Origin: Massilicoli timonensis
GTDB lineage: Bacteria > Bacillota_I > Bacilli_A > Erysipelotrichales > Erysipelotrichaceae
Direction of reading: 5' to 3'
Length of the DNA: 32,000 nucleotides
Assembly: GCF_900199515.1 (NCBI RefSeq)
Contig: NZ_LT963434.1
Coordinates: 1,742,180-1,774,179, forward strand
In this document: in pieces, positions 6,810 to 30,610 of the stretch
How the letters are laid out: every line of letters begins with the position of its first letter
Position numbering within the stretch: position 1 is the stretch's first letter
Made by a program: the position numbers and the translations under genes
The notes under the pieces: generated by a model
Told to the model about the DNA's origin: nothing
The model's database searches: none
The model's input: only the letters and a program-made list of their open reading frames with translations

Positions 6810-7145
6810 TCACCTTTCTTTCTGCGCTTTGGCTTTCTGTTTGGCTTCGGCGGCCCTGGCCTGTTCCTGGACAGTATCCCATACCGTATCCATATAAGAG
6901 GTTTCCTGGTTCTCCCACCGCTCAAAAATCCGCTTCAAGGGCTTGTCAGATTTCAGCAGCGCCCTGGCCTGACTATCCTCCAGATCGTGGTATTCAAGAG
7001 ACATCAGGATGTCCTCCCGCACCGTGTACTCATAGGCATGGTTCAAAATCTCAGCCGGCGGTTGGGAGAGCAGCCAATCCCGGAACTGCTCCTGTTCCGC
7101 AAACATTTTCTCATAGAGCCTGGTATTTAATTCTTCGTTGGTCAT
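6810..7145 (-). CDS. Hypothetical protein (111 aa), DUF3848-like by memory
   Basis: The SD AGGAGG follows the stop of the giant ORF. The sequence LYEKMFAEQEQFRDWLLSQPPAEILNHAYEYTVREDIL is recalled from ICE-associated small proteins. Confidence 0.7.
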   Translation of the reverse strand: MTNEELNTRLYEKMFAEQEQFRDWLLSQPPAEILNHAYEYTVREDILMSLEYHDLEDSQARALLKSDKPLKRIFERWENQETSYMDTVWDTVQEQARAAEAKQKAKAQKER

Positions 7146-7156
7146 CGTATCCTCCT

Positions 7157-10100
7157 TTACCGTGCCAGCTCCGCAACCCTCCGGGCAGGCACATCCTCGC
7201 CCTCGTCTGGGGTATCGTCCATCAATGTCTTGTCCTTCTCATCCATGTTGAGCAGAATATTCAGCTCTTTCAAACGGGCTGTTTTCTCCGCCAGCTCCTC
7301 CTCGCGGGCAAAAGGTGTAGCCAATTCCGTGCGGGCGTTTTCAAGCTGGGCCTTGGTTTCCTCCAGGCTGTTCTGCTCGGCCTGCAGGCTGCCTGCAAGG
7401 TTTTCCAGAGCGTTGTCCAGGCGGGTGATATTGCCGAACACATCCGCCCCCAGCGTCACCGTATGGGAAAGAGTGCCTTTGAGCGTGATCCGATACTCGT
7501 TGCTCCTGCCATCATAAGCCAGCACCATGGAAAAGCCCCGGTACTGCCCCAAAAGAACAGCGTCGGAACCTGTCATACGGGTGCAAACATCAATGATAGC
7601 CTTGCCGGCGCCCTCTTTTTCGGTGTAGTGCCTGCCATCCACCTCCATGCCGCAGAAGCCCTCCTGGGCCTTGGGGTGGGCCGCCGCCAGCGCCACATCC
7701 TGCTCATAGCCCGCGATCCGTTCCGTGAGCCGGGTGATTTCCTCCGGGTATTTCCGATACACCAGTTCCTCCAGAGCGTACACCTGGTTCAAGTGGCTGG
7801 CTTTCAGCATATTGAGCCGCGCCACCTCCATATCCAGGTTGCACTTCTCGATAATAAGTGGGTTGCCGGTGGCCAATGCCTTGATTTCCGAATAGCTGAG
7901 GGCAGTTTCATCTACATCATCCGCCACACGGACGGGGGCCTTGCTGGTCATGATCTGGGCGATGAACTTCTGCTTGTTCTCCACAAGCTGGTAGAGGTAA
8001 GCGTCAAAAGTGCCTTCCGTTACATACCGATAGATTTCCACCTCCTCATTTTCATTGCCCTGGCGGACGATACGCCCCAGCCGCTGCTGAAGGTCGGAAG
8101 GCCGCCAGGGGCAGTCCAGGTCATGCAGGGCAATGAGCTTATCCTGGACGTTAGTGCCTGCGCCCATTTTGGCCGTGGAACCCAGCAGCACCCGCACCTG
8201 CCCGGCGCGCACCTTGGAAAACAGCTCCTTCTTTTTGGCTTCGCTGTCTGCCGTGTGGATAAAGGCGATTTCTTCTTCCGGGATACCGGCGTCCATCAGT
8301 TTCTTTTTTAGGTCGTCATAAACACTGAAAGAGCCATCGGTAGTAGGTGTGGACAGGTCGCAGAATACAAGCTGGGCAGAGCGTTTTTCTTTAGTCTGTT
8401 CCCAGATGCGGAACACATTCCGGGCGCAGACAGCCACCTTGCCATTGGGGTCGTCGGCAGCGAGAGGGTTGATGAGCCGCATATCCAGCGCCAATTTCCG
8501 CCCGTCATTGGTAATGCGGAGCATATTGTCCACATGGGGGTCAACCCCACCGGCACGGATTTTCTCTGCCCGTTCCGCCAGCCCTCTTATCATCTCTTTC
8601 TGAAGCTCCGAGGGCTGGATCACTTCCGTGTGGAAGTTTGCCTTGGGAACAGGCAGACAAAGCATATCCGCTGTTTGGATGTCGGCAACCTCCTTGAAAG
8701 CAGCCATCAGCTCCGGCAGGTTATAAAACTTGGCAAACCGGGTTTTGGCTCGGTAGCCGGTGCCCTCCGGCGATAACTCGATGGCTGTAACCGTTTCTCC
8801 GAAGCTCCCCGCCCAGTCATCGAAATGGACAAGGCCCATCTCCTGCAGGAGCCTGTACTGCAAATACCTCTGGATGGTGTAAAGCTCTACCATGGAGTTG
8901 GAGATAGGGGTGCCGGTGGCAAAAATCACGCCGCGCCCGCCGGTCAACTCGTCCAGATACTGCGTTTTCATGAACAGGTCGCTGGATTTCTGGGCTTCGG
9001 TCTGGGCAATGCCGCCCACGTTTCGCATTTTTGTCGCCAAAAACAAGTTCTTAAAATAATGGCTCTCATCAATAAAGAGCCTGTCCACGCCGAGCTGCTC
9101 AAAGGTGACGGTGTCATCCTTGCGGCTCTGGTCGTTGAGCTTGGCCAGCCTTGTCTCCAGCGATTTCCGGGTACGCTCCATCTGCTTGACCGTGTAGCGT
9201 TCCGCCTTCTGTGCCTTGGCCTGCTCGATTCCTTCCAGGATTTCTTCAATCTGGCGCTCCAAAATGGCCTGCTGGCGCTCCAGGCTCATGGGGATTTTTT
9301 CAAACTGGCTGTGGCCGATGATGATGGCGTCGTAGTCCCCGGTGGCAATGCGGCTGCAAAACTTCTTGCGATTCTGGGTTTCAAAATCTTTTTTCGTAGC
9401 AACCAAGATATTGGCGCTGGGATAGAGTTGAAGCCATTCCGCCGCCCACTGTTCCGTGATGTGATTTGGCGCCACGATCAGTGACTTGGTGCAAAGCCCC
9501 AGGCGCTTCATCTCCATGGCGGCTGCCACCATCTCGTAGGTTTTGCCTGCCCCTACCTCGTGGGCCAGCAGGGTGTTTCCGCCGTACAAAATGTGCGCAA
9601 TGGCATTGATCTGATGGGGACGTAAGGAAATTTCCGGGTTCATGCCTTCAAACCGGATGTGCCGCCCATCATATTCACGGGGGCGGACGCCGTTGAAGGT
9701 TTCGTTGTAAATGCGGCACAGCAGTTCCCGGCGGTCGATGTCTTTCCAGATCCACTCGGCAAACTTCTGCTTGATGAGTTCCTGCCGGTCCTGGGCAATC
9801 GCGGTTTCTTTTTTGTTGAGGACAGGCTTTTTCTTGCCGTTCTCGTCCTCAATATAGTCAAATACCCGCACATCCCTTTGATTTAGAGTCTGCTCCAAGA
9901 TGTGGTAGGCGCTCATCCGCTTGGTGCCGTAGGTGGTATTGGCTTTTACATTGCTGCGGTCGGCGTTTTTCTCCCGGATGCTCCATTGGCCGGTGGCTTC
10001 GGAGCGCAGGATTTTGATACGGTCCCGCACATAGTAATTGGGGGTGAGCAGCTCCACCATGAATTGCTGGTACACCTCGATGGGCACCCAGTTCGCGCCA

Positions 10101-13100
10101 ATGCGCACCCCAATTTCACCAGCGCCCAGGTCCTGGGGCTGGACGGCCTCCAAAGCCTCCACATTCCGGCGGGCGGTTTCCTTCTGATTGTCAGGGGCCA
10201 CTTCCAGGAATGCTTTTGCCATCCGCAGCTTTTGGCGCACTTTCCCGGAAAGGTACTCATCCGCCGTGACAAGAGGATAGCGGCTCAAATCCGCCAAAGA
10301 AGGCAGGATGTCCTCCGGGTTCTCCGCACAGCGAATATCCCGGTAGATCACCCCGGCAAGCTCTTTTTCCAGTTCCTCCGGGGATTTACCCGACAGCTCT
10401 GCCATATAGTCCATATCCACACGGGCTTTTTCCGAAATGGACACCGCCAACGCTTCACTGGCTGTATCCACACTGGTGACAGCCACATGGGGCCGGATGG
10501 TGCGCCGGGTGAACATATCGGCTTTTCTTTTTAGGTTGCCCTGCTCATCCAGCACCTCCAGAGAGCACAAGAGGCAGTAGCTGGAGTCCTCCGAAAAGGC
10601 CAGCTTGTTGCCGCGACTGTTCAGCAGCCCATACTTGGCGGTGAAGCTGTCGTAAAGGGCGTTGAGCTTTTGCTGCTCGGCTGCAATATCCTCATCCGGG
10701 TAGCCTTCGGTCTGGTACTCAATAAGCCTGCGGGTACATTCCCGCAGCTCGATCATGCCACGGATACGGTTTTCCGCCGTGACGGAGACTTCCACCGGGT
10801 GCATGAGACTGTTTTCTCGGTAGTATACTTGCCCATCTGCAATCGTGTAGCTGAAATTCTTCACTGTGGGGTCGGCAGGGATGGAGCGATCTTCCTCCTC
10901 GTCCAGCTCCTCCAGCTCATAGGGCTTGATTTCCGCCTGCAAAAACTGGATGGCATTGGCAAGCTGCTCGGATAAATCTTCCCCCTCGCGGGCTTTGCAG
11001 GCGCTGTCCGGCCCGAACCGTGTGGATTCCATCACCATGTCGCCCAAAATCATCTCCGGGTGCTGCACGAAATAGCGGTTCATGCGGATTCCGTTTTCAT
11101 CGGTGTCCAAATGCACCCAATCCTGGTCTAAATCGGTGATGTGGTCGCGCTTTTGCAGAAAGATGATGTCGCTGGTCACTTCCGTTCCGGCGTTCTGCTT
11201 GAAGGTGTTATCCGGCAGGCGGATGGCCCCGATCAGGTCGGCGCGCTGTGCCAGGTACTTTCGGACGCTGGAGTTTTCCTTGTCCAGAGTGCCTTTGCTG
11301 GTAATGAACGCCACAATACCGCCGGGCCGCACCTTGTCCAGCGTCTTTCCGAAGAAATAGTCGTGGATCAGCCAGTGGTGCTTGTCGTACCGTTTATCCA
11401 GCACTTTGAAATCCCCAAAGGGGACGTTGCCCACGGCTACATCAAAAAAGCTGTCGGGCATTTGCACAGTTTCAAAGCCGTTTACGGAAATGTTGGCATT
11501 CTGGTAAAGCTGGCCCGCAATCCGCCCGGAAATGGAATCCAGCTCTACGCCATAGGCTTTGCTGCCCGCCAAATCTGTGGGGAGCAAGCCAAGGAAATTG
11601 CCGGTGCCGCAGGACGGTTCCAAAATGTTCCCCTGGGTAAAGCCCATCTGGGACAGGGCCTTGTAGATTCCCCGGATAACCACAGGCGGCGTGTAAAAGG
11701 CGGTGAGGGTGCTGGCCCTGGCCGCCGCGTATTCCTCTGAATCCAGCAGGGATTTCAGCTCCTCATAGTGGGGGCTGGTTTCCTCAAAGCAGTTTGCAAG
11801 GCCGCCCCAGCCCACATAGCGGGACAGGATTTCCTGTTCTTCGGGCGTGGCCAGCCGTTCCTCAGCTTCGATCTGCTTCAAGGTGCGGATGGCGGCAGCA
11901 TTGGCCGCGTATTTCTCGCTGGGGATGCCGTGGCCCAGGGCGTCATCGGTGATGTGGAAATCATGGCGCTGATCCCTGGGGACCTCCGGGTGCAGGGTTG
12001 TGAAAGTAATGCGCTCACGGCGGGGGTGCTTCGGCGGCAGTGGGAGTGCTTCTTCTTTTTTAGGCTGTAAATCGGCCTGCTCTGGGCTGGCTGGCTGTTC
12101 CTCTGCGGCAGGGGCTTGTTTTGCCTGCTCAATGGCTCGTTCATCAGGGAAGTTCCCGTAAACCCGCAGCCATCTGTTCTCCTGAAGGTCATAGATACCC
12201 GCGCCATCATAGGCAAAGCCATCCTCGCCCTCCATGGTGCCGGCCACATATTTCTGCGCAGCTTGTTCGGCCTTCGCCAGCGTTTGGTAATCCAGCTGTT
12301 CATCAAAGCCATTTTCAAAGTGATGGTACACCACCACTTCGTAAGGCGGCTCCATGCGCTGGGCGTAGCGGTCGATGTCCTCCATGGTGAGCCATTCCGG
12401 TTTTTCCGGCAGGGCGTCATAGAGTTCCCGCATTTTGGCGATTTGCTCTCGCACGTTCCCAGCCCACAGGTGCTTTTCCGCCCGTCCGCCAGCGCCCAGG
12501 AAGTAATCGCAGTCGGCTTTCAGGCGGCTGAGTAAACGGTAGTCATCTGAACGCTGCTCCAGCGTGGCACCGATGGATTCAAGTTCTTCATCGGAAACGG
12601 AAATGAGGTCATCAAAATCCAGCTCGGCCAGCTCGTTCTGGATGAGTTCGTCCAGGCTCTCATACTGCCTGCGCTCCAAAAACTGCCCGTCCAGATAACG
12701 CTCAATGCGGTAATGGACCAAATCTGCATTGACCTGGATGGGGATTTCCTCATCGGTGACGGTGGTGTAGGCAATGCCCACCTTTTCCAGATCACTGAAA
12801 TCGGCTGGGCTGCCATACTCGGCCACGCAGAAATCGTTGATAAACTCTTTGGCTATCTCCAGAGAAGCAGGTTCCGGCTCCTCGGACAAAAAGCCTCGCT
12901 CAATGAAGTCAGCAACATCCTGGCTGTTACCTTTACCGCCATGGGCACGGTAATCCATCAAACCTTCTTCGACCAGTTCGCTGGATACCGCATATCCGGC
13001 CTCCTCCAGATAACCGGCGATTTCTGCTATCTGCGCCTGTTCCGGGGAAAGGGCCGGGGGCAGCTCCGCGATCTGCTCCATACAGAGGGAGATGTCCACC

Positions 13101-16100
13101 GCGATTTCTTCTTCCGGGTCCGCATGGTCCAGGAAGGATTGAAGCAGTCTGCGGATTTCTTCCCGCTGAACGGGGTCGTGAAGCTGCTGGGCGATATTCT
13201 CCACCGCCTGAGCGTCATCTTCGCCATAGCCCATGCGGGAACCGTCAAACTCTCCCACAAAGCGCAGCACCTGGGCGGCCAGCTCCGGGTAGGGGTCTGC
13301 CAGTTCTTCTTTTTGAGGCGGTCCCTGTACCCTGGGCGGCACGGCGAATACCGGCGCGTCCTGGGTGGCGGAAATAGTCATTTCCGAAGTGTCAGCAATC
13401 CACTGGATTTCCTCCCGCACTGCCTGGGGCATTTCCTCATCATAAATCGTTACCGTGCGATCCGGCGCGATGTGGGCAACCGTTTTGTAGTCCCCGTGTT
13501 CTTCCTCCAGCCGGTTCCACACGGTAAGCCCATTTCCCAGATGGCCATAGCCCAGGTCGTAGGCTTTCGCCTGCGGCATGGTGGGAGCCACCGGCTCCTT
13601 GTGCTCCGCAAAGAGCGTGAAGGTTCCCTGTCGGAAGGCGGCGAGGTTTTCAAACGCCTGCCGGCGCAGGGCGTACATCCTGTCATCCTGCGGGGTGGCC
13701 TCCCAAATGGGGACCATCATCTGATAGATTTCTTCCACACGGGCCGGGTCATCAAGCTGCGGCTCAATGAGCTTCACTGCGTCCCAATAGTCAAAGCCAA
13801 AGGGATAGGGGTGGGGCTGCTCTTGTGGCACGTTCTCAAAGAAAGTGCGGATATTCCGGGCAAGCTGGTGCTTCTCATACTGCGGCATGGCGGCGCGGTC
13901 CTCATCGGTGAGGAACCGCCCCTGGGCGATCATGGCGCTGACGCGCTTTTCCACGGCGGGCCATTTCAGCTCCACCTTGGCGTAGGGGGCGGTGATACTG
14001 CCATGGCTGAAAGAAACGCCTTTACTGAGCTGGTAGGTCACATCGTCATTCCCACTGGAATGGCCGCTGTACTCGCCGTGGTAGTGCTTTAAGAAATTCT
14101 CCCGTTCCTTGCGCTCTGTGTGGTTGCGGTAGAAAGAATACACGGCCAGCCGGTAATCCGTGCTGCGTTTCCCGCCCCGCAGAAGGTTGTCAATCTCGTC
14201 CCCGGAGATAAAGAAACGCCGCTGGGGATCGTACCCTTCGGCGGCGGTAAAGTGCAGCGGTTCCCGCTGCAGGTCAGAAAGCTGCTCCAGCAATTTTTGC
14301 GGACGGTGGAAATGGAACCGCAGCAGTTCCCGGTTCTCTCTGTATGCCTGGACAAACTGCTCCAGCTCATCCCGCAGGTTCTGCAGCCCCTCCGGATGGC
14401 CTAACAAATCGCTGATGGCGGCGCTTTCCTCTGGAAACCCATGATTTTTGCCGTAAATGGCATTCACCGTGGGAAGATAGCCCGCGTCGGCGGTGCCTTC
14501 TGCAAAATCCTGCCGGAGATACCATAGCTGCGCGGCCCGTTGCTGGCGTTCATACCCGTCCACCCGGTCCAGCTCGCTCTGGGGCATATACCGGCCCAAA
14601 TCCAGCAGTTCCCGGATACGGGCCGCCGCCTGTTCCCAGGGGATGAGGGTGGCGCTGGAACGCTGGGCGCTTTCGCCCTGGGCAATGCGGATTCCCTCTG
14701 CGTTGTACCAGATGGCATACTGCCGGCCATCCAGATAAAAGCCCGCGCCGTTCTCGCCATAGTGCTCCGCCAGGAACCGGGCATTGTCCGGCTTATCCTT
14801 TTTGAAATAGGCGCAGATGATGAGGCGGCTGTTTTGGTCGTTGGCACCAATGCACAGCGCCTCGTCGATTACCTGCTGAGGCAGTGCCGGGTGAGGGAAA
14901 ATGGATGGTTGGGCCGTACCCTCGGCCTGGGCTGGCTGCTGAAACGCCGCAAAATCAAAAAGGGACATCTGCTGGCTCTCCTGGGTAAGGAGCTGCGGGA
15001 TGTCCGTCTGAATGAAATATTCTTTTTTGTCAATGAGCTGGGCAGTCCACTGGGCCACAATATCCCAGGAAAAAACGGATTCCTTGGTGCGGGATGGGTA
15101 AGAGCCTTCCCACATGAGCAGGCCATTCTCCTGGGGCTTATATCCCAGGCGCTGCCCGTCAGCGATGATTTCGGTGTACCGGTCCTGATAGGCAGATCTC
15201 AGATATTCCGCCCGTTCCTGAACGTCGCTGTGAACCGAGAAGAAAAGCTCAATCTGATTTTTCTTATATTTCAGGTCATCATCCTTGTTGGCGATGATGG
15301 CCATGATCTGCTTTTCATCCAAAAGCGCAGGGAGCTGTTCGCCGCCTGCGCTTTCTTCCTGTTCTTCATTTAGCTGTAAATCAGTTCCGCCAGCACCGTT
15401 TCCTCCGCCGCGTTCTGCAGGTTGTTCATCATCTGCACCCACTTCATCTGGTCGCTGGCTTTCAGTTCCTCCGTCACGCCCTGGGCTTTCGCCATCTGCG
15501 CTACGATTTCCTCCATCCGGCGCTGGGCCGTCTGCTGGACCTCCGCCAGATGACTGTTCAGTTTGCCGCTGGTCAACAGGTTCGTGTACGTCACCCTGCG
15601 GTGCTCCTTGAGGAACTTCTTCCGAAGCAATGCGTATTTCCCATGGGGAACCGGCTCCTCCTGGGGAGGCAGAAGGTTCGGCAGATTGTAGTCGCCCTGC
15701 CTGGTGTAAGTGATCTCGGTCATATTCAAAACTCCTTTCCGGCTGTGTGTTTTCCTGTTCAGTTACAGCATACTGGTTTTTCTGCTGGGGTTCAAATGTG
15801 CGATTTTCTTTTTGGGGCTGTCTTTGCAGGGCAAGGACCGTGCGGGAAATGGCGGAAAGGCACATCTGAGAGATGTCCCCGGTGGCCACGCCCAAAGCGT
15901 TCAGGGTCTGTGGGGTGTTGAAATTCAGCACACCCCGAAAATCCTCATCTTCAAAATATCCAGACGGGTCAAGGCCGCAGCGCACCAGCAGCATATATCC
16001 AATGCTGTTTTGCACCGCCCTGCGGTATTCCACCTCCAGGTTCAGCTCGTCCAGTTCTTCCAGAAAGCTGCCTTCCGTAAGGGTTTTCAATTCAGAAAGA

Positions 16101-16570
16101 TAGTCGGGCATATTATCCTCCACGGCGTTCTTTGCCGTAGAGAGCAGGGCTTCACCCAAATTCTCCTTGTGCTCCAGTTCTCCAAAGCTGTTTTCCAGCG
16201 TTTCGATGATGTCCGGCGCGTATTCCTCCCGCACCGTCCAAAGGGGGACGGGCCGTGGGAACCGGGCTTCATGGGTATCGGAAATATCAAAGTAATACTT
16301 CAGCCGGGGCTTGCCATTGTGTTCACCGTCAAAAACAGCAATGCCGTTTGCGCCCCGGTTTACCCAGCGCCCAAATTGCCGGTTCCATCGCTCGATCTCC
16401 AGGACGGCGGTGGCGTCTGGGCGCTGGGCGTAGACAAGCAGTTGTTCATCGAAAGAAAGCCGGTAGTTACGGCAGGCAGAAGCCAGAAACGCCCGCCACT
16501 GGTCGGGAGCTGTCACGCTGCGCTGCGTTTCCTGGTACAGCTCCGTCAAGGCTTTATATCGTATCGCCAT
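7157..16570 (-). CDS. Giant polyvalent protein: ArdC-N-like N-terminus, low-complexity linker, several uncharacterised domains, N6-adenine DNA methyltransferase, SNF2/DEAD-type helicase, coiled-coil C-terminus
   Basis: The ORF is open for 3,137 codons with SD AAAAGGAGG. The N-terminal segment is YRLSFDEQLLVYAQRPDATAVLEIERWNRQFGRWVNRGANGIAVFD. Methyltransferase motif I is LEPSCGTGNFLG (nt 11588-11623) and motif IV is GNVPFGDF (11408-11431). The helicase Walker A is AHEVGAGKTYEM (9530-9565), the DEAH-type box is FIDESHYFKN (9047-9076), and the motif VI-like sequence is QQRLGRIVRQGN (8054-8089). Confidence 0.85.
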   Translation of the reverse strand: MAIRYKALTELYQETQRSVTAPDQWRAFLASACRNYRLSFDEQLLVYAQRPDATAVLEIERWNRQFGRWVNRGANGIAVFDGEHNGKPRLKYYFDISDTHEARFPRPVPLWTVREEYAPDIIETLENSFGELEHKENLGEALLSTAKNAVEDNMPDYLSELKTLTEGSFLEELDELNLEVEYRRAVQNSIGYMLLVRCGLDPSGYFEDEDFRGVLNFNTPQTLNALGVATGDISQMCLSAISRTVLALQRQPQKENRTFEPQQKNQYAVTEQENTQPERSFEYDRDHLHQAGRLQSAEPSASPGGAGSPWEIRIASEEVPQGAPQGDVHEPVDQRQTEQSSGGGPADGPAPDGGNRSADGESPGRDGGTESQRPDEVGADDEQPAERGGGNGAGGTDLQLNEEQEESAGGEQLPALLDEKQIMAIIANKDDDLKYKKNQIELFFSVHSDVQERAEYLRSAYQDRYTEIIADGQRLGYKPQENGLLMWEGSYPSRTKESVFSWDIVAQWTAQLIDKKEYFIQTDIPQLLTQESQQMSLFDFAAFQQPAQAEGTAQPSIFPHPALPQQVIDEALCIGANDQNSRLIICAYFKKDKPDNARFLAEHYGENGAGFYLDGRQYAIWYNAEGIRIAQGESAQRSSATLIPWEQAAARIRELLDLGRYMPQSELDRVDGYERQQRAAQLWYLRQDFAEGTADAGYLPTVNAIYGKNHGFPEESAAISDLLGHPEGLQNLRDELEQFVQAYRENRELLRFHFHRPQKLLEQLSDLQREPLHFTAAEGYDPQRRFFISGDEIDNLLRGGKRSTDYRLAVYSFYRNHTERKERENFLKHYHGEYSGHSSGNDDVTYQLSKGVSFSHGSITAPYAKVELKWPAVEKRVSAMIAQGRFLTDEDRAAMPQYEKHQLARNIRTFFENVPQEQPHPYPFGFDYWDAVKLIEPQLDDPARVEEIYQMMVPIWEATPQDDRMYALRRQAFENLAAFRQGTFTLFAEHKEPVAPTMPQAKAYDLGYGHLGNGLTVWNRLEEEHGDYKTVAHIAPDRTVTIYDEEMPQAVREEIQWIADTSEMTISATQDAPVFAVPPRVQGPPQKEELADPYPELAAQVLRFVGEFDGSRMGYGEDDAQAVENIAQQLHDPVQREEIRRLLQSFLDHADPEEEIAVDISLCMEQIAELPPALSPEQAQIAEIAGYLEEAGYAVSSELVEEGLMDYRAHGGKGNSQDVADFIERGFLSEEPEPASLEIAKEFINDFCVAEYGSPADFSDLEKVGIAYTTVTDEEIPIQVNADLVHYRIERYLDGQFLERRQYESLDELIQNELAELDFDDLISVSDEELESIGATLEQRSDDYRLLSRLKADCDYFLGAGGRAEKHLWAGNVREQIAKMRELYDALPEKPEWLTMEDIDRYAQRMEPPYEVVVYHHFENGFDEQLDYQTLAKAEQAAQKYVAGTMEGEDGFAYDGAGIYDLQENRWLRVYGNFPDERAIEQAKQAPAAEEQPASPEQADLQPKKEEALPLPPKHPRRERITFTTLHPEVPRDQRHDFHITDDALGHGIPSEKYAANAAAIRTLKQIEAEERLATPEEQEILSRYVGWGGLANCFEETSPHYEELKSLLDSEEYAAARASTLTAFYTPPVVIRGIYKALSQMGFTQGNILEPSCGTGNFLGLLPTDLAGSKAYGVELDSISGRIAGQLYQNANISVNGFETVQMPDSFFDVAVGNVPFGDFKVLDKRYDKHHWLIHDYFFGKTLDKVRPGGIVAFITSKGTLDKENSSVRKYLAQRADLIGAIRLPDNTFKQNAGTEVTSDIIFLQKRDHITDLDQDWVHLDTDENGIRMNRYFVQHPEMILGDMVMESTRFGPDSACKAREGEDLSEQLANAIQFLQAEIKPYELEELDEEEDRSIPADPTVKNFSYTIADGQVYYRENSLMHPVEVSVTAENRIRGMIELRECTRRLIEYQTEGYPDEDIAAEQQKLNALYDSFTAKYGLLNSRGNKLAFSEDSSYCLLCSLEVLDEQGNLKRKADMFTRRTIRPHVAVTSVDTASEALAVSISEKARVDMDYMAELSGKSPEELEKELAGVIYRDIRCAENPEDILPSLADLSRYPLVTADEYLSGKVRQKLRMAKAFLEVAPDNQKETARRNVEALEAVQPQDLGAGEIGVRIGANWVPIEVYQQFMVELLTPNYYVRDRIKILRSEATGQWSIREKNADRSNVKANTTYGTKRMSAYHILEQTLNQRDVRVFDYIEDENGKKKPVLNKKETAIAQDRQELIKQKFAEWIWKDIDRRELLCRIYNETFNGVRPREYDGRHIRFEGMNPEISLRPHQINAIAHILYGGNTLLAHEVGAGKTYEMVAAAMEMKRLGLCTKSLIVAPNHITEQWAAEWLQLYPSANILVATKKDFETQNRKKFCSRIATGDYDAIIIGHSQFEKIPMSLERQQAILERQIEEILEGIEQAKAQKAERYTVKQMERTRKSLETRLAKLNDQSRKDDTVTFEQLGVDRLFIDESHYFKNLFLATKMRNVGGIAQTEAQKSSDLFMKTQYLDELTGGRGVIFATGTPISNSMVELYTIQRYLQYRLLQEMGLVHFDDWAGSFGETVTAIELSPEGTGYRAKTRFAKFYNLPELMAAFKEVADIQTADMLCLPVPKANFHTEVIQPSELQKEMIRGLAERAEKIRAGGVDPHVDNMLRITNDGRKLALDMRLINPLAADDPNGKVAVCARNVFRIWEQTKEKRSAQLVFCDLSTPTTDGSFSVYDDLKKKLMDAGIPEEEIAFIHTADSEAKKKELFSKVRAGQVRVLLGSTAKMGAGTNVQDKLIALHDLDCPWRPSDLQQRLGRIVRQGNENEEVEIYRYVTEGTFDAYLYQLVENKQKFIAQIMTSKAPVRVADDVDETALSYSEIKALATGNPLIIEKCNLDMEVARLNMLKASHLNQVYALEELVYRKYPEEITRLTERIAGYEQDVALAAAHPKAQEGFCGMEVDGRHYTEKEGAGKAIIDVCTRMTGSDAVLLGQYRGFSMVLAYDGRSNEYRITLKGTLSHTVTLGADVFGNITRLDNALENLAGSLQAEQNSLEETKAQLENARTELATPFAREEELAEKTARLKELNILLNMDEKDKTLMDDTPDEGEDVPARRVAELAR
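15370..15723 (-). CDS. tnpV: TnpV-family protein (117 aa) nested in the +1 frame inside the giant ORF
   Basis: The ATG at 15723 is preceded by GGAAAGGAGTTTTGAAT. The product is MTEITYTRQGDYNLPNL...GKYALLRKKFLKEHRRVTYTNLLTSGKLNSHLAEV...KASDQMKWVQMMNNLQNAAEETVLAELIYS, which matches the TnpV pattern I recall. About 97 of 117 codons end in G/C by hand count. Confidence 0.8.
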   Translation of the reverse strand: MTEITYTRQGDYNLPNLLPPQEEPVPHGKYALLRKKFLKEHRRVTYTNLLTSGKLNSHLAEVQQTAQRRMEEIVAQMAKAQGVTEELKASDQMKWVQMMNNLQNAAEETVLAELIYS

Positions 16571-16588
16571 CGGTTGCCCCTCCTTTTC

Positions 16589-20327: not shown

Positions 20328-23300
20328 TTATTTCACGGTGTTTTTGCCCTTCTTGCGCTTACCCACATAGGCCGCAACGCCCAGGGCGGCAGCGCCCATA
20401 GCGGATACGCCCATCAGAGCCGCCCACAGCCAGGGCTTGCTGTCGTCGCCGGTTTTCGGGGTGTCGCGCAGCTCGTTGTGCATTTCCGCCACGGTGGTCT
20501 TATCCGCAAAAATCGTCACCGTCTTATCCGCAGGCAGCACATAGTTGGCGCTGGCCCCATCCGACACCTCGGACACAGTGTAATCGCCCACGCGCAGGCC
20601 TTCGATGAAGATTTCACCGTTTTTATCGGTTTTGAAGGTCTGGTCGTAGCTGTTGGCCCCCGTCACGCGGAAGGAGAAGCCCTCCACCTTGCCGTCGCTG
20701 GATGTCTTTTCAATCCGAAGGGAACCAATCTGGGCCATGTTGGTGAAGCCAATCCCTGCCTCGTTCTCTACATCGTAAATCTTGCCGTTCTCGGTGATCT
20801 CCACATAGTAGGCGTTTTCATCCAGCAAGAAGCCCTCCGGCGCTTTGGTTTCCTTTACGAACACGCCGCCGTAGAGGATGTGGGACATCTCGTAAATGCC
20901 GGTGCTGGTTTCCTCCAGCTTACCCAGCAGCTCATCGCCCTCGTCCAGCTCTTTGTTGCCGTTGGTATCGCGGTACACCTCGAACTCGGCCCCAGTGAGC
21001 TTGTTGTCGGGATAATCCTTATCCACCTTCGTCAAACGCAGGTCGCCATAAATGCGCTCGTTGGCAAGGGAGATTTCCACTACCTGCCCATCTTCCTCCA
21101 CAGTAACGGGGATCACTTCATCGGAGAGGATGAACCCTTCCGGGCTTTCCAGCTCTTTCAGTACCCAATTTCCGTAAGGCACATTAGAGAAAGAAAAGCT
21201 GCCATCCTCCGCTGAGGTAGCGGTGGCCAGGGCATTTTCTGCGGTAAACTCGGTTTCGTCGTTCTTAAAGAGACCAATCACAGCCCCGCCCAGGCCCGTG
21301 CCGTTTTCGTCAGTTTTGAGGCCCTTGATTTCACCGCGGATCAGCTCGTTGGTGACAGCCTCGCCATCATTGGCGGAAATCTCTACCACGGCAATGGAAG
21401 GCCCGCCGTACTCAAAGGTGAACGGGAAGGTTTCGCCATTCAGCAGGTAATGGCTGTCGGTGGACAGCTCCTTCAAGTAGAAGCTGCCGAAAGGCAGGTC
21501 GGTGCTGCAAACGGCCTGGCCATTCTCATTCACAGAAACGATTTCCAGAAGCCCGTTTGCCGGAATCACGGAACCATCCGCTGCGGTGATGTCCTCCTGG
21601 GCATAGAGGCCAAAGGTCACGGCGGAAATTTCGCCATTCATGCCAATGCCAAAGATTTCATCCTGTTCCAGCACCTTGTCAAGCGTCACAAGGGCTTTTT
21701 GGCGCTGGTTGTAGAAGCTGGCAGAGGTTTCGGTGACTTCCACCTCCTGGCCTGCGTACACCAGCTCCACGTTGGTGACGTTCTCGCCGGTATCCACCAT
21801 GCCGTGGGGGAACTGGATTTCCTTCACCTGGAATTTGCCCAGGTAAAGGGGCTGGCTCTGGGCCGTCCCGTCCTCGCCGGTGGTGATGGTGTCCACTACC
21901 TCGCCCGCAGAGTAGCGCAGGGTGCCGTCCAGGGTGTAGACGTCCTCCAGGGCGGTGATTTCAAACACCGCACCGGGCAGGCCCTGCACCTCGTACACCG
22001 GCTGGTAAACGCCTTCGCTTTCTGCCACAGAGGAGAACACCTCGCCGGTTTTGCTGACCTTGATGATTCCTTTCTGGGCCATGTTGGGCTTGGTAACTTC
22101 GATCACCGTCACGCCGCCTTCCTCGCTGGAATTGTCCTCGGTCACATCAAAGTAAACCGGGGTGCTGTCCAGCACATAGCCGTAGGGGGCCTGTACTTCA
22201 ACCAGAGAGTACCCGGAGCCGTACTCCAGCTTTTCCGGGGTGACAAGGTAGCCCTCGGAATTGGTGTAGAACGTATCAATGGTGGTGGGCGTCGGGTAAG
22301 TGAAGGTCATTTCCACCTTGCTGCCATCCGGGCGGTAAATCTGGAACCCGGCCCCCGCATAGGGGATGGTGACGCCGGTTTCCGCGTCCACCTTGACCAC
22401 CTTGATGAAGCTCTCAAAATTGGCGTTGTTGATAAGGTAGCGGTAGGTCTGACCATCCTGGGCGATATACACTTCAAAATCGTCCATCAGCTCGCGGCCT
22501 TCCCAGCCCTTGGTCTGGCGGACGATATAAGTGCCGTAGGGCAGCTTCTTCGACTGTGCAAAGCCGTTCTCATCGCAGACGAGAACATCGCGCTCAGATT
22601 CCTTGGCATTTTCATAGCTGCCGGCTGATTTCAAGAATACCTGGAACTCTGCGCCGGATTCCGGAGTTTCGATCTGGGTTTCCCCATCATCGGTGTGCTT
22701 GATGATGGCAATGTCGCCCTTGATGACTTGCTCCGTCACATCGTTGGCTGTATCGTTCAGCTCAATGGTATAAAGCTCCGGCTCCGCGCCTACCTTGTGG
22801 ATGGTGGAATCCAGCAGGTAGCCCTCGCTGGGGCCGATTTCACGGATTGTCCAGTCCGAATCACAGACGTAATAACCGGTGGTGAACTGGCCGTTTTCGT
22901 CCGTGGTGAAGCTGTCGATGAGGGTGTCTCCCTTATACAGCCCATACACAGCGCCGGCCAGGGAACCATCGCCCTGGGGCGCGCCTGTTTCCACGTCGCT
23001 CTTGGTGACGGTGACACGGAACTTTTTCAGCACGTTGTTCACGCTCTTGTGGGTCACTTCATTCCACTCGATGGTGGCTGTCTGGGAATCCGGCACCACA
23101 TAACGGATAGGGGTATCCACCTCCTCCAGTACATAGCCCGTGCCGATGAGCACGTTTTCAAAGCGCGCCACACCGCTGGAATCCGTCACAGCATATTCGT
23201 CCACCGGCTGCCCGGAGAGGGATGTGCCGGACAGATGGAAGGTCATGCCCTCCACCAGCCCGTCCTCGCTGGTTTTCGTCACTTCCAGGCTGCCGCGCTT

Positions 23301-24557
23301 CAGCTTGTTATTGAAAGTTACGGTGGCGGTCTGGCCGCTGACGATGGTCACGCGCTGGGTTTCCTGGGGTTCATACTTATCAATCGACTGCTCGGTTACG
23401 GTATAAACGCCAGGGTTGAGGTCGGTGATGTCGATCTCGCCCGCCTCATTGGTGGTCTTGGTGGCGCTGTACCCCTCGCCGGTGATAGTGAAGTTGATCC
23501 CGGCTACCTGACCGTCCTCGGAAGTCTTAATCAGCTTCATGTTGCCGGTTTTCACTTCCAGGTTCAGATAGCCTACCATCTGGTCGGAAACGGTTTCCCC
23601 GTAGGTGGCAAAGTCCTGTTTGCCGCCGCCAGTAACGCCGTCCGTCCAAACCACAACGCCGCTGCGCTGGGCAGTCACTTTTTCCGCCTTAATGGTCACA
23701 GAGCCTTTGATGGCCTGGGCGGAAGTGATGGTGAGCTGGTTGCCATCCACAGAGAAATTCAGGCCGGTGGTGCTGCTGGAGAAGGTGTAGTCACCCAGCA
23801 CACCGTTGGTATCCGTGAGAGTGAGGGAATACTGCTGGCCGTCCCATTTCAGCTCATAGGCCCCGGCGTCTACGGTGCTGCTGAAAAAGCTGGGAAGCAT
23901 AGTATGGCGCTTGACCGCGCTCTCAATGGCGGAATACTGGCTGAAAATCTCGCTGTACAGGGGATGGTCGGCGCTGATATATTCCGTCACGTTATTTTTG
24001 CCCTGGGCGTTGGCGTCCACATGGTTAAACTGGCTGTCGCGCTCACCCACGACAGTTTCCCAAACAAGAAGCTGGGTAGCGATATATCCCGCGATCTTGC
24101 TGGCGTCCTCCGGGTTCCCACTCATCCATGAGGTGCTGGCGTTGCCCTGCCAGCCATAGGTCATAATCCGCCCGATATATTCTTTGATGGTATCCGGCGG
24201 GATGGTGGGGTTCAGGTTGGACGGGTAGTTATCCCAGAAATCTTCGCCCCGGCCCGTGTACTGGTCGCCGGTATTCACACCGACGCCCGGCTCAATACAG
24301 TAGATGGCCCTGCCATTGAAGGCGTCCTGGGTGTGGACGGAAAAGCTGTCGTTCTCTCCGGTGGACCAGCCGCCCAGGAAATTCAGTGCGGGATGGCCCC
24401 ATCCGGCCTTGTTGGGGTCGCTGGCACGGGGCAGGTCGATCATATACGTCGTCATGGTTTCGCCTGCGGCAAAAGCCGTGGTTCCTGTCCCTACGAACAC
24501 GCCCAGGCACATGAGCAGGGCCATGAACAGGGACAGAGGCTTTCTCAATGCTTTCAT
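20328..24557 (-). CDS. Cell-wall-anchored surface adhesin: signal peptide, thioester-type domain, ~9 Cna-B/SpaA-like repeats, xPKTG sorting signal
   Basis: The start ATG at 24557 has SD AAGGAGG and gives MKALRKPLSLFMALLMCLGVFVGTGTTAFA. The TED-like motifs are AIYCIEPG (Cys codon 24297-24299) and ATQLLVWE (Gln codon 24072-24074). The repeats follow the pattern L/I.V.K.d...G..l.GA.F.l. The C-terminus is TPKTGD (20448-20459) plus a hydrophobic helix plus KRKKGK. Confidence 0.9.
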   Translation of the reverse strand: MKALRKPLSLFMALLMCLGVFVGTGTTAFAAGETMTTYMIDLPRASDPNKAGWGHPALNFLGGWSTGENDSFSVHTQDAFNGRAIYCIEPGVGVNTGDQYTGRGEDFWDNYPSNLNPTIPPDTIKEYIGRIMTYGWQGNASTSWMSGNPEDASKIAGYIATQLLVWETVVGERDSQFNHVDANAQGKNNVTEYISADHPLYSEIFSQYSAIESAVKRHTMLPSFFSSTVDAGAYELKWDGQQYSLTLTDTNGVLGDYTFSSSTTGLNFSVDGNQLTITSAQAIKGSVTIKAEKVTAQRSGVVVWTDGVTGGGKQDFATYGETVSDQMVGYLNLEVKTGNMKLIKTSEDGQVAGINFTITGEGYSATKTTNEAGEIDITDLNPGVYTVTEQSIDKYEPQETQRVTIVSGQTATVTFNNKLKRGSLEVTKTSEDGLVEGMTFHLSGTSLSGQPVDEYAVTDSSGVARFENVLIGTGYVLEEVDTPIRYVVPDSQTATIEWNEVTHKSVNNVLKKFRVTVTKSDVETGAPQGDGSLAGAVYGLYKGDTLIDSFTTDENGQFTTGYYVCDSDWTIREIGPSEGYLLDSTIHKVGAEPELYTIELNDTANDVTEQVIKGDIAIIKHTDDGETQIETPESGAEFQVFLKSAGSYENAKESERDVLVCDENGFAQSKKLPYGTYIVRQTKGWEGRELMDDFEVYIAQDGQTYRYLINNANFESFIKVVKVDAETGVTIPYAGAGFQIYRPDGSKVEMTFTYPTPTTIDTFYTNSEGYLVTPEKLEYGSGYSLVEVQAPYGYVLDSTPVYFDVTEDNSSEEGGVTVIEVTKPNMAQKGIIKVSKTGEVFSSVAESEGVYQPVYEVQGLPGAVFEITALEDVYTLDGTLRYSAGEVVDTITTGEDGTAQSQPLYLGKFQVKEIQFPHGMVDTGENVTNVELVYAGQEVEVTETSASFYNQRQKALVTLDKVLEQDEIFGIGMNGEISAVTFGLYAQEDITAADGSVIPANGLLEIVSVNENGQAVCSTDLPFGSFYLKELSTDSHYLLNGETFPFTFEYGGPSIAVVEISANDGEAVTNELIRGEIKGLKTDENGTGLGGAVIGLFKNDETEFTAENALATATSAEDGSFSFSNVPYGNWVLKELESPEGFILSDEVIPVTVEEDGQVVEISLANERIYGDLRLTKVDKDYPDNKLTGAEFEVYRDTNGNKELDEGDELLGKLEETSTGIYEMSHILYGGVFVKETKAPEGFLLDENAYYVEITENGKIYDVENEAGIGFTNMAQIGSLRIEKTSSDGKVEGFSFRVTGANSYDQTFKTDKNGEIFIEGLRVGDYTVSEVSDGASANYVLPADKTVTIFADKTTVAEMHNELRDTPKTGDDSKPWLWAALMGVSAMGAAALGVAAYVGKRKKGKNTVK

Positions 24558-24582
24558 CGTGTTACCTCCTTGAAATGGCCGC

Positions 24583-24610
24583 AAAAAAAGCACATCGCTC
24601 TGGATGTGCT
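24583..24610 (-). terminator. Rho-independent terminator 26 nt upstream of the adhesin start codon
   Basis: The minus strand reads AGCACATC-cagagc-GATGTGCT followed by TTTTTTT. Confidence 0.65.
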
Positions 24611-26993: not shown

Positions 26994-27461
26994 TCAGATA
27001 GAAGTTGACTGGCAAAGGTATGTATCCACATTTACCTTTAGCTTTTTCAGTGCGGCAAGGATTTTATCGTGTTCTTTACGGCGTGGAACGCGGGCTTCCC
27101 TTTCCCAGCCGGAATAGGTTGTTTGACCTATTCCAATCACCTCTGCCATTTGCATTTGAGTTAAGGAAAGCTCATGCCGTACCTTTTTCAAAAGAGAGGA
27201 ATACGGGTAATCTACAAAGGTAGTATATTCGTCCAGAAGTCTATTGCGGTCAATCCCCAGCGTATTTGCAAGTGCCACCGCTATATCGTGCTTAATGGGG
27301 TGTCGGTCATTCTCATACAGAACCAGTGTCGCGGGCACAATGCCAACCTTTTCTGCCAGTTCCCTTGTGGTGAGACCCTGGAATGTCCGGTGATACTTCA
27401 GATATTGGCCCGGTGTGGTGCATTTTTCATCGGTTTTGTAGTCAAAGGTCAAATGAATCAT
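26994..27461 (-). CDS. XRE-family transcriptional regulator with two HTH domains (155 aa)
   Basis: From the ATG at 27461: MIHLTFDY... The two HTH segments are LTTRELAEKVGIVPATLVLYENDRHP and LSLTQMQMAEVIGIGQTTYSGWEREARVP. The upstream part of track ORF 26994..27854 is antisense to the response-regulator remnant and is not protein-like. Confidence 0.8.
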   Translation of the reverse strand: MIHLTFDYKTDEKCTTPGQYLKYHRTFQGLTTRELAEKVGIVPATLVLYENDRHPIKHDIAVALANTLGIDRNRLLDEYTTFVDYPYSSLLKKVRHELSLTQMQMAEVIGIGQTTYSGWEREARVPRRKEHDKILAALKKLKVNVDTYLCQSTSI

Positions 27462-27500
27462 GATTTTGCCTTTAGAATAGAGGTAAATCCCTGTGTGATT

Positions 27501-27884
27501 GAGATTACTATCGGTAAGCCTATAGACATGGACGAATTGGTTTTGCGTGTAGGGGCACTGCTTCGCCGTGCCAACATCAAAAATGAAAACCGCATGGAAA
27601 TTGGCGACCTTGTTTTGATTCGGGATGAAATGACTGCCTATGTGAATGGAGAAGAAATTCCTATCTTGCCAAGAGAGTTCAATATTCTTTATAAGCTGCT
27701 TTCTCACCCTAAAAAAATATTTACACGAAGTGAGCTGATTGATGAATACTGGGGCATGACGAATGATACCGGACTGCGTACTGTCGATGTCTACATTACG
27801 AAGCTCCGCAAGGAATTTGCCGGGTGTAAAAGTTTTGAAATCGTCACCGTACACGGATTCGGGTATAAGGCGGTGCTGAAATGA
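27501..27884 (+). pseudogene. OmpR-family response regulator, 5'-truncated: only the last receiver-domain residues and the winged-helix effector domain remain
   Basis: The recognisable sequence is ...IGKPIDMDELVLRVGALLRRA (end of the receiver, with the conserved K-P) followed by a trans_reg_C-like domain (LPREFNILYKLLSHPKKIFTRSELIDEYWG...VDVYITKLRKEF...VHGFGYK). No D-D/D/T receiver motifs lie upstream. The stop overlaps the kinase start (ATGA). Confidence 0.75.
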
Positions 27885-28948: not shown

Positions 28949-28963
28949 TGGACGACTATCAGC

Positions 28964-29019
28964 GAATGCAAAAAGAGGAACATTTGTGATATCTAACGAA
29001 TGTTCCTCTTTTTGCATTC
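28964..29019. terminator. Bidirectional terminator between the convergent kinase and PLD genes
   Basis: A perfect 21-bp inverted repeat is present: GAATGCAAAAAGAGGAACATT (28964-28984) and AATGTTCCTCTTTTTGCATTC (28999-29019). The loop is 14 nt. Confidence 0.8.
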
Positions 29020-29021
29020 TT

Positions 29022-30428: not shown

Positions 30429-30610
30429 AACTGTTTCTCCGTCCATTAAGAGTAGTGTAAGCCTATCATAATGGGTGGATGTTATTCTAATTCCTTGTTT
30501 ATGTTAATGAAATGTAAAACACGCCCGTTTCATGCGGGAGATTTTACGTTTCATATCTCATTAACAAAAATTGAGAAGAGGATTAACATCCGCATTTTAT
30601 TATACCTGTC

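Follow-up and report, generated by a model that had tools for sequence, protein, structure and literature searches.

Can an intact mobile-element gene serve at the same time, in another reading frame, as part of a much larger gene? This question was raised by a locus of Massilicoli timonensis, in a window of 32,000 nucleotides, where a tnpV-like gene appeared to lie within a 9.4-kb open reading frame (ORF). The giant ORF (7157..16570, minus strand) encodes 3137 amino acids. Its ATG at 16570 follows a strong Shine-Dalgarno (SD) sequence, AAGGAGG (16579..16585, minus strand), at a distance of 8 nt. The product is exactly identical to the M. timonensis RefSeq protein WP_102269102.1, annotated as 'LPD11 domain-containing protein'. 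The Pfam domains found in it were LPD11, N6_Mtase, SNF2-related and Helicase_C, and LPD25 is present in its close relatives. With several unrelated effector and LPD domains in one very large polypeptide, it has the make-up of a polyvalent protein.

From the N- to the C-terminus, the giant protein comprises a conserved N-terminal domain, a linker overlapping tnpV, conserved downstream domains, LPD11, the N6 DNA methylase and the SNF2 helicase. The N-terminal domain (residues 1-281; 15727..16570, minus strand) is conserved, with a dN/dS of about 0.1, and has no stop codon of its own. In sequence-based searches it matched nothing in Pfam at E<=10, and PDB searches by sequence or profile were also empty. 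In every homolog, the first conserved domain past the linker (residues 411-700; 14471..15340, minus strand) continues the frame of the N-terminal domain. It lacks a conserved start codon, and Pfam and PDB sequence and profile searches returned no family match. The neighbors of the giant ORF on the same strand encode ParA, ParB, an SpaA/thioester adhesin, DUF7007, DUF3848, Toprim/DUF3991, a MobA/VirD2 relaxase and DUF3801. These genes provide the context of a conjugative element, in which the giant ORF is located between the partition and adhesin genes and the primase and relaxase genes.

The tnpV coding sequence (15370..15723, minus strand; open frame 15370..15729) encodes 117 amino acids and ends with a stop codon at 15370-15372. 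The original prediction had placed it wholly inside the giant ORF, on the same strand and in the +1 frame. The ORF list bore this out, with both frames open and both on the minus strand, which the prediction had left unstated. Position 16570 equals 1 mod 3 and position 15723 equals 0 mod 3, which puts tnpV in the +1 frame relative to the giant ORF. Therefore, the first position of each giant codon coincides with the third position of a tnpV codon. The TnpV product is exactly identical to RefSeq WP_245858139.1, 'TnpV protein'. Its resemblance to the TnpV family had been proposed, and a profile comparison was set beforehand as a refutation test. The overlap claim survived it with a strong similarity to Pfam TnpV (PF14198; E=2.2e-44, 150.4 bits against a cut-off of 27), in which protein residues 5-115 covered profile positions 1-111 of 111. 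The motifs TY..GDY.PN, GKY, DQM.W and ELIY were invariant or nearly so in alignments with both embedded-type and free-standing TnpV, and the size of 117 residues fits the family (about 115-125). The predicted structure of TnpV was confident and helical (pLDDT 86). The model had no PDB fold match at E<1, and the best hit of a PDB sequence-profile search, at E = 0.017, was not significant.

The canonical ribosome binding site noted before tnpV was also confirmed. An internal SD sequence, GGAAAGGAG (15732..15740, minus strand; core GAAAGGAG), is followed by TTTTGAAT and then by the ATG. In the giant frame, the same SD nucleotides encode P-E-R-S. No promoter-like or terminator-like site was found around the overlap, and no RNA structure was found at the tnpV start (fold z = -0.28).

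To see how far these features are shared, we compared related loci. A query spanning the linker gave 344 loci, of which 80 were listed; they belong to different Bacillota and many genera, with TnpV identities of 49-98%. The ascertainment bias was handled by repeating the analysis with loci found via TnpV alone. Among the loci listed, the tnpV start ATG was invariant, and the length of TnpV stayed within 114-118 residues. The arrangement GAAAGGAG-N7-9-ATG was present in virtually all of them despite the diverging surroundings, with single-base SD variants in two (L058 and L078). The tnpV frame had a dN/dS of about 0.2-0.3, indicating purifying selection. The embedded gene is thus under selection for its protein sequence and retains start signals of its own. 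The behavior of the giant frame within the overlap was different. There, dNN/dNS was 0.78-0.98, no lower than the value of 0.73 in the non-coding third frame, and we found no amino-acid-level selection on this part of the giant product. For the flanks, giant-frame dN/dS was 0.03-0.16, with most values at 0.05-0.15. These frame-specific rates, a kind of analysis suggested in the original prediction, assign constraint to TnpV and leave the giant frame unconstrained in the overlap. Synonymous divergence was 0.45 in tnpV against 0.66-0.69 in the flanks, which could be partly due to codon bias or recombination.

These observations bear on whether TnpV is a living gene at all. It might be a fossil, captured as linker-coding material, with the giant protein as the only product. 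Internal starts within translated ORFs are often weak, and some annotation pipelines report the giant protein alone (WP_102269102.1 and its full-length relatives), as such an account would have it. However, in a fossil the start would be lost, stops would have built up in the tnpV frame, and the codon-position pattern would now follow the giant frame. The full-length Pfam match, the constant length, the ATG with a near-invariant SD at a conserved spacing of 7-9 nt, and purifying selection on the tnpV frame with none on the giant frame make this account unlikely.

A living tnpV might also be expressed without its own initiation. A programmed +1 ribosomal frameshift, stimulated by the SD-like GGAGG, would yield a fusion of the N-terminal domain to TnpV beside the giant protein. 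In prfB and dnaX, internal SD sequences are known to stimulate frameshifting, and here the frame junction is closely preceded by a conserved SD-like element. Fusion proteins of 399 residues joining the N-terminal domain to TnpV also exist in databases. We rejected these as frameshift products: their junctions differ, they arise from single-base deletions inside tnpV, and each is a singleton. An invariant ATG spaced 7-9 nt from the SD is the layout of an initiation site. Moreover, several loci have a stop in the tnpV frame 1-2 codons before the ATG, giving an ORF of 119 codons (L014, L015, L034, L050, L063 and others), so that there is no room for an upstream shift. No conserved slippery motif stood out on non-systematic inspection. 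We regard frameshifting, too, as an improbable source of TnpV.

Within the giant ORF, the overlap forms a linker (codons 283-401; 15368..15724, minus strand) that is stop-free and shows no amino-acid-level constraint. As the original prediction had described, its peptide is hydrophobic-poor and rich in G, P, A, E, D, S, R and Q, and the sequence was as quoted there; it includes SPWEIR and DGGTESQRPDEVGADDEQPAER. This composition results from the giant codons, which begin with G or C in 82% of cases in the overlap. A shift in third-position GC content (GC3) had been claimed from a hand count, and the computed values agreed: tnpV had a GC3 of 0.82, and the giant frame had 0.63 over its first 282 codons, 0.33 across the overlap and 0.70 after it. 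The dip at tnpV is unique within the whole giant ORF. We considered further nested genes, and other +1 ORFs (e.g. 11878-12420) had no family match and were read as out-of-frame sequence. The absence of stops in the giant frame and the absence of an SD upstream of the downstream ATG (MAIIANK) also held as predicted. In addition, this Met is not conserved, as homologs have IFAII, ISGII or ITAIL in its place. A restart of translation at MAIIANK was ruled out on these grounds.

The open state of the giant frame could have a trivial cause. The tnpV codons end mostly in G or C, so out-of-frame codons rarely begin with T, and the frame might be open by chance with no selection for read-through. The first position of the giant codons, which is the third position of tnpV, indeed has a GC content of 0.82. 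For this single sequence, the giant frame stayed open in about 10% of synonymous-codon permutations, or in 1.8% when the codon usage of the flanks was applied. Sequence by sequence, within-gene synonymous permutation put the chance of an open frame at 0.004-0.58, and flank codon usage put it at 0-0.07. However, 73 distinct tnpV sequences with protein identities of 49-98% were all free of giant-frame stops, where 2.4-9 would be expected. Over 15 clusters, defined at 80% nucleotide identity, the joint chance was about 1e-20. Both frames are thus kept open over divergent homologs beyond chance.

The pattern of synonymous sites was equally distinct. A tnpV codon ending in T never preceded a codon beginning with AA, AG or GA (0 of 1704), while T-ending codons made up 16% elsewhere (685 of 4244). 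At four-fold degenerate sites, T was wholly excluded from the dangerous contexts (0 of 1256, against 302 of 2490), although C, G and A varied freely at the same sites. Judged from these counts, the apparent rule is that a tnpV codon may not end in T before a codon starting with AA, AG or GA. The high GC3 and lowered synonymous divergence of the overlap are consistent with such a stop-avoidance rule, but are not proof of it. The controls found via TnpV alone separated in the same manner. In the 12 loci with the N-terminal domain upstream, there were 0 stops and GC3 was 0.79-0.86, with 0.68 in an AT-richer Monoglobus record. In the 15 loci lacking the N-terminal domain, free-standing tnpV had 2-14 stops in that frame and a lower GC3 of 0.15-0.66. 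The comparative data already contradict a giant frame that is open by chance, and we consider this explanation very improbable.

The nested layout itself was highly conserved. The tnpV frame was offset by +1 in 80 of 80 loci listed, including the complete genomes AP025576 and NZ_AP031406. In the 76 listed loci where the downstream domain was found, it always shared frame 0 with the N-terminal domain. A stop-to-stop giant ORF covered tnpV in 79 of the 80, so the embedded ORF and the open giant frame co-occur, a point that the original prediction had proposed to check. A plasmid of Cohnella (Bacilli) and the Monoglobus record had the identical layout, and the arrangement was also found in plasmid and viral-collection contigs. 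The N-terminal domain in related loci had no stop before tnpV, apart from a nonsense codon within the N-terminal part of one locus (L019). The giant ORF of another (L077) was truncated at 547 codons. Even relatives with 29-35% identity retained an N-terminus of about 400 residues carrying tnpV-shadow motifs.

Therefore, the layout is not an indel artefact, as the original prediction had allowed it might be. A sequencing or assembly indel splitting two real genes around a normally intergenic tnpV could look plausible from gene callers that often give tnpV plus a giant gene starting just past it, and from those 399-residue database proteins that shift from the giant frame into the TnpV frame, but the single frame relation throughout the listed loci, many genera, complete genomes, and plasmid and viral-collection contigs, the lack of a stop between the N-terminal domain and tnpV, the lack of a conserved start codon or SD for the part after tnpV, and the singleton deletions at different positions behind the 399-residue variants already refute it, leaving this explanation a negligible probability.

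The conservation and openness of both frames, the purifying selection on TnpV, its conserved start signals and the avoidance of stops lead to one reading. Very probably, as judged from sequence comparison, this locus is a true, evolutionarily maintained same-strand nested gene pair in a conjugative element, with one mRNA and two products. A single transcript would carry the 9.4-kb polyvalent methylase-helicase gene. Ribosomes starting at 16570 would stay in the giant frame across tnpV, yielding a tether of about 119 residues, unconstrained in sequence and probably disordered, that would join the N-terminal domain to the remaining protein. In the +1 frame, other ribosomes would use the internal SD and ATG (15740-15721), make the 117-residue helical TnpV and stop at 15370. 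Selection acts on the amino-acid sequence of TnpV in one frame and only against stop codons in the other.

Both proteins are probably made, and the conserved SD and ATG point to internal initiation as the probable source of TnpV. Initiation within an ORF that is itself being translated tends to be inefficient; TnpV may therefore be scarce, or may rely on an internal promoter that was not seen. The overlap peptide probably acts as a linker, given that the two conserved parts have to stay in a single frame.

The original prediction had offered two readings, overprinting or a fusion that merged two ancestral genes around tnpV. For the present state, overprinting held: tnpV is intact and under purifying selection, and the giant frame is stop-free against a strong expectation of stops. 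A fusion is compatible as the evolutionary origin, given the free-standing TnpV relatives and the unconstrained segment. Most likely, tnpV is the older partner, and would have been engulfed as the two flanking ORFs became joined by way of its alternative frame. In a rough neighbor-joining tree of TnpV proteins, the embedded forms of Clostridia grouped together, and three loci (L082, L089 and L086) branched near the free-standing forms. This rough tree did not settle between a single origin and multiple origins of the nesting.

Related cases of nesting include comS within srfAB and Rz1 within Rz. Rz1 within Rz of phage lambda, and B within A and E within D of phiX174, show complete same-strand +1 nesting on one mRNA, with an internal SD and start. 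These are phage genes, and the embedded members are taken as the younger, overprinted partners, with few or no free-standing relatives. The tnpV pair shares the complete same-strand +1 nesting and, presumably, the two products from one mRNA. It differs in belonging to a conjugative element, in overlapping only 354 nt of a 9.4-kb gene, and in that the embedded gene is the constrained one. The comS gene is short and lineage-restricted, and is believed to have originated within a gene older than itself. In Bacillus subtilis it lies out of frame inside srfAB, a very large multidomain gene, with which it shares operon expression but not function (PMC8160284). The likeness is that of a small gene placed wholly inside a giant multidomain gene, on the same strand and out of frame. 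In contrast to comS, tnpV belongs to a widespread older family with thousands of free-standing relatives, and its host segment is unconstrained. The overlap also separates two conserved parts of the host protein, and does not lie inside a folded enzymatic module.

The TnpV of Tn4451/Tn4453-type mobilizable transposons is of the same PF14198 family and equal size, and is likewise found in mobile elements of Bacillota (PMC3158075). It has been postulated to help excision, from its resemblance to lambda Xis (PMC3158075). In Tn4451-type elements tnpV stands free beside a large serine recombinase (e.g. L084), a context that is typical of the family without defining it; here tnpV is nested, with a GC3 of about 0.8. 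No recombinase was found among the scanned ORFs of the window, and the neighbors of tnpV are parts of the giant ORF. The host resembles the polyvalent proteins surveyed by Iyer et al. 2017 (PMC5512222) in being a giant multidomain protein with LPD11, a DNA methylase and an SNF2 helicase. ArdC-N is a frequent, though not obligatory, N-terminal DNA-binding domain of such proteins. Pfam searches and PDB sequence and profile searches did not assign the N-terminal domain of this host to ArdC-N or another family. The survey (PMC5512222) mentions neither TnpV nor overlapping genes nor frameshifts, and we found no published description of tnpV nested in a giant polyvalent gene.

The nesting also affects annotation. 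Gene callers either drop tnpV, or keep it, cut the giant N-terminus by about 280-400 residues, including its conserved domain, and add spurious antisense ORFs. The affected elements are very common in gut Bacillota. The clusters for the two exact proteins have 1222 and 531 member sequences, and the family comprises 1094 representative clusters.

Long, complete same-strand nesting is rare and often doubted in bacteria, and the tnpV case has unusually strong comparative support, spanning dozens of independent lineages with clean free-standing controls. It may serve as a model for the coexistence of two frames. Its polarity is reversed, as the embedded gene is old and constrained, and the host uses the alternative frame as a stop-free linker. 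Neighboring genes can, on this evidence, fuse across an intervening gene without destroying it. It is likely that a giant conjugative-element protein family of Clostridia and Bacilli was built in this manner, by joining two coding regions via the alternative frame of an intact, still-functional tnpV. The small gene would then double as the template of a linker, an arrangement long held only by selection against stops, and during transfer TnpV synthesis would perhaps be tied to the transcription and translation of the host gene. The nesting links TnpV to methylase-helicase proteins that are thought to protect incoming DNA, which offers a testable lead on the function of TnpV.

The giant ORF runs from 16570 to 7157 on the minus strand in the ORF listing and encodes a 3137-aa polyvalent protein, in which Pfam recognized LPD11, N6 DNA methylase, SNF2-related and Helicase_C domains. 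A strong Shine-Dalgarno (SD) sequence, AAGGAGG, lies 8 nt upstream of its ATG at 16570. The nested tnpV gene (15723 to 15370, minus strand) encodes 117 amino acids that cover the Pfam TnpV profile (PF14198) from end to end (E=2.2e-44), and inspection of the sequence placed the SD GGAAAGGAG before its ATG with an 8-nt spacer. The third codon position of tnpV falls on the first position of the giant codons. The GC3 of tnpV is 0.82, and 82% of the giant codons in the overlap start with G or C, which explains why the overlap peptide is rich in Gly, Pro, Ala, Glu, Asp, Arg and Gln. Since stop codons start with T, the high GC3 of tnpV also makes giant-frame stops less likely. The GC3 of the giant frame was 0.63 before the overlap, 0.33 within it and 0.70 after it. 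This dip was the only one along the 3137 giant codons, and the remaining +1 ORFs inside the giant gene showed no family match. The original prediction had described a TnpV-like gene with its own ribosome binding site, out of frame in the giant ORF and marked by a fall in giant-frame GC3; all of these features were borne out. RefSeq holds both exact products from Massilicoli timonensis, the giant protein as 'LPD11 domain-containing protein' (WP_102269102.1) and the nested one as 'TnpV protein' (WP_245858139.1).

When giant residues 1-540 were used as a protein query, 1520 relatives were retrieved, many of them spanning the whole overlap peptide, at identities down to about 51%. A genome scan with one genome per species revealed 344 related stretches, and the best 80 were analysed. 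All of these best 80 carried a tnpV homolog (49-98% identity) at a frame offset of +1, and the next conserved domain was in frame 0 in all 76 of them in which it was located. A stop-to-stop giant ORF spanned tnpV in 79 of the 80. The sole exception (L019) carries a nonsense codon further upstream, in the N-terminal part. The hosts of the analysed loci include Oscillospiraceae, Lachnospiraceae, Holdemania and Eubacterium nodatum, and some of the genomes are complete. One Monoglobus record, two from Subdoligranulum and a Cohnella herbarum (Bacilli) plasmid share this layout. The first post-linker domain (14471-15340, minus strand) matched 1094 clusters among 1.84 billion representative proteins. 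Full-length relatives with just 29-35% identity retain about 400 residues ahead of this domain, in which a shadow of the TnpV motifs (..EIR.., ..RPDEVGG.DEQ.., ..DLQL..) is still readable. Judged by these comparisons, the nested arrangement is neither an error nor a one-off.

Both reading frames are maintained by selection. Across the loci tnpV has 114-118 codons, and GAAAGGAG followed by 7-9 nt and ATG marks its start in essentially every locus, while the adjacent bases diverge. No giant-frame stop occurred in 73 distinct tnpV sequences. Within-gene synonymous shuffling left the giant frame open in 0.4-58% of trials, depending on the sequence; when codons were recoded according to flank usage it stayed open in 0-7%, with 2.4-9 stops expected. 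A giant-frame stop requires a T-ending tnpV codon followed by a codon starting with AA, AG or GA. T-ending codons numbered 0 of 1704 before such codons, compared with 685 of 4244 in harmless contexts; for four-fold degenerate codons the counts were 0 of 1256 and 302 of 2490. C, G and A all vary at the four-fold sites where T is absent, indicating that these sites mutate and that T is removed. With one value per cluster (15 clusters at 80% nucleotide identity), the joint chance of an open frame was about 1e-20.

Because the first set of loci came from a query crossing the linker, the stop test was repeated on loci found through TnpV alone. Plasmid records and viral-collection contigs supplied 12 tnpV genes that lie downstream of the N-terminal domain; these contained no stops, with TnpV identity down to 41% and a GC3 of 0.79-0.86 (0.68 in the AT-richer Monoglobus record). 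The 15 lacking this domain upstream contained 2-14 stops and had a GC3 of 0.15-0.66. The higher GC3 of nested tnpV held even at similar surrounding GC (loci L081-L114). The need to avoid stops in the second frame may disfavour T at third positions, raising the GC3 of the nested genes.

An OLGenie-style count gave a dN/dS of 0.2-0.3 for tnpV, and a dNN/dNS of 0.78-0.98 for the giant frame in the overlap, no lower than that of the non-coding third frame (0.73). In the flanks, the giant frame had a dN/dS of 0.03-0.16, mostly 0.05-0.15. Synonymous divergence was 0.45 in tnpV versus 0.66-0.69 in the flanks, and 0.23 versus 0.43 in closer pairs. The amino-acid constraint thus lies on TnpV, and the giant frame must merely stay open. 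This supports the overprinting reading of the original prediction.

The N-terminal 281 giant residues are conserved and never have a stop of their own, and the part after tnpV showed no conserved Met and no SD. Giant translation therefore seems to proceed from 16570 through tnpV. Ribosomes would read across tnpV in the giant frame to make the giant protein, in which the overlap peptide and the variable stretch past the tnpV stop would act as a flexible tether. In one protein-database relative (P0008) this variable stretch is longer by an insertion of about 70 residues. TnpV would most simply arise from the same mRNA by internal initiation at its conserved SD and ATG; the vicinity of tnpV showed no promoter-like site, terminator-like site or unusual RNA structure. 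A programmed frameshift as the source of TnpV is a weak alternative, since the tnpV ATG is invariant and several loci close the tnpV frame just 1-2 codons upstream of it. The AlphaFold model of TnpV is confident (pLDDT 86) and helical, and comparison with PDB folds gave no match at E<1. A role of TnpV in excision has been postulated (PMC3158075).

The neighbouring genes, encoding ParA, ParB, a SpaA/thioester adhesin, DUF7007, DUF3848, a Toprim/DUF3991 primase, a MobA/VirD2 relaxase and DUF3801, share one strand, and this set identifies a conjugative element. In the interval from ParB to the giant gene, the element encodes a surface protein of 1421 aa (20328-24593, minus strand). This protein combines a thioester domain with ten repeats of the SpaA type (E=4e-113) and probably serves as an adhesin in mating-pair formation. 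On the right-hand side of ParA (26994-31675) the gene content differs, with an HTH regulator, an opposite-strand histidine kinase, a phospholipase-D-like protein and a glycosyltransferase, and the element may end on one side at about 26.8-27.9 kb.

Several variant copies were also observed. Seven database proteins of 399-400 aa (P0083, P0085, P0086, P0091, P0095, P0096 and P0114) pass from the giant N-terminal domain into the TnpV frame within the overlap. All are singletons from metagenome assemblies; the switch position differs among the three sequences read (P0083, P0085 and P0086), and P0083 and P0085 fit a single-base deletion. Rather than a regular product, they seem to reflect misassembly or rare inactivating mutations. 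In P0106 (398 aa) the N-terminal domain runs, just past the tnpV start, directly into the beginning of the DUF3848 protein, whose gene (6810-7145) follows the giant ORF. This junction indicates a variant without tnpV and the remaining giant gene; it is a singleton that could derive from a deletion or from chimeric assembly. In P0115 and P0120 the early linker continues into sequence that lies about 1700 residues further on, and P0001 joins giant residue ~670 to ~2220; large in-frame deletions seem to arise readily in the giant gene. In Eubacterium nodatum ATCC 33099 (L077) the giant ORF ends at 547 codons, soon after the overlap, and L052 and P0094 extend about 10 codons past the tnpV stop before ending, near a contig end. 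These copies and L019 may be decaying, or may represent a shorter architecture of N-terminal domain plus linker.

Nested out-of-frame genes are known, including Rz1 in Rz and those of phiX174. Another documented case is comS in srfAB (PMC8160284). The tnpV/giant pair differs from all of these in polarity: the embedded gene comes from a very large family that also has free-standing members, with thousands of sequences in some clusters, and the unconstrained partner is the overlapping segment of the host gene. The flanking coding regions were likely fused across an intact tnpV. No description of this arrangement was found in a survey of polyvalent proteins (PMC5512222) or a study of a Faecalibacterium ICE (PMC12084326), neither of which mentions TnpV or overlaps, or in three papers naming TnpV (PMC3158075, PMC9815147, PMC10782964), where it is handled as an ordinary annotated gene. 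In Streptococcus suis ICEs, small tnpV-carrying mobilisable elements integrate specifically in the snf2 gene (PMC9815147). Unlike nested tnpV, these insertions are disruptive and bring their own integrase. They are nevertheless another case that connects tnpV with giant genes of the SNF2 type, and might offer a clue to how such a gene first acquired tnpV.

Annotation of these loci is inconsistent between records. Where tnpV is called, the giant gene begins at an internal codon and the 280-codon N-terminal domain is left unannotated (L092-L098, L082 and L086); the full giant protein is present in other records. In the Monoglobus record (L082), RefSeq lists TnpV and a 'SNF2-related protein' starting about 3.1 kb into the open frame. 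The metagenome gene calls (L092-L098) keep tnpV, start the giant gene right after it and lose the N-terminal domain, and such calls frequently overlay the giant gene with spurious antisense ORFs of 200-380 aa. Taken together, the sequence data argue that tnpV and the giant gene form a real, family-wide dual-coding locus, from which both proteins would be produced. Nested genes were known already, and this locus differs in its reversed polarity, in that a member of an older family with free-standing representatives is the embedded and constrained partner. Miscalling of the giant gene's start is systematic, and the element concerned is very common.
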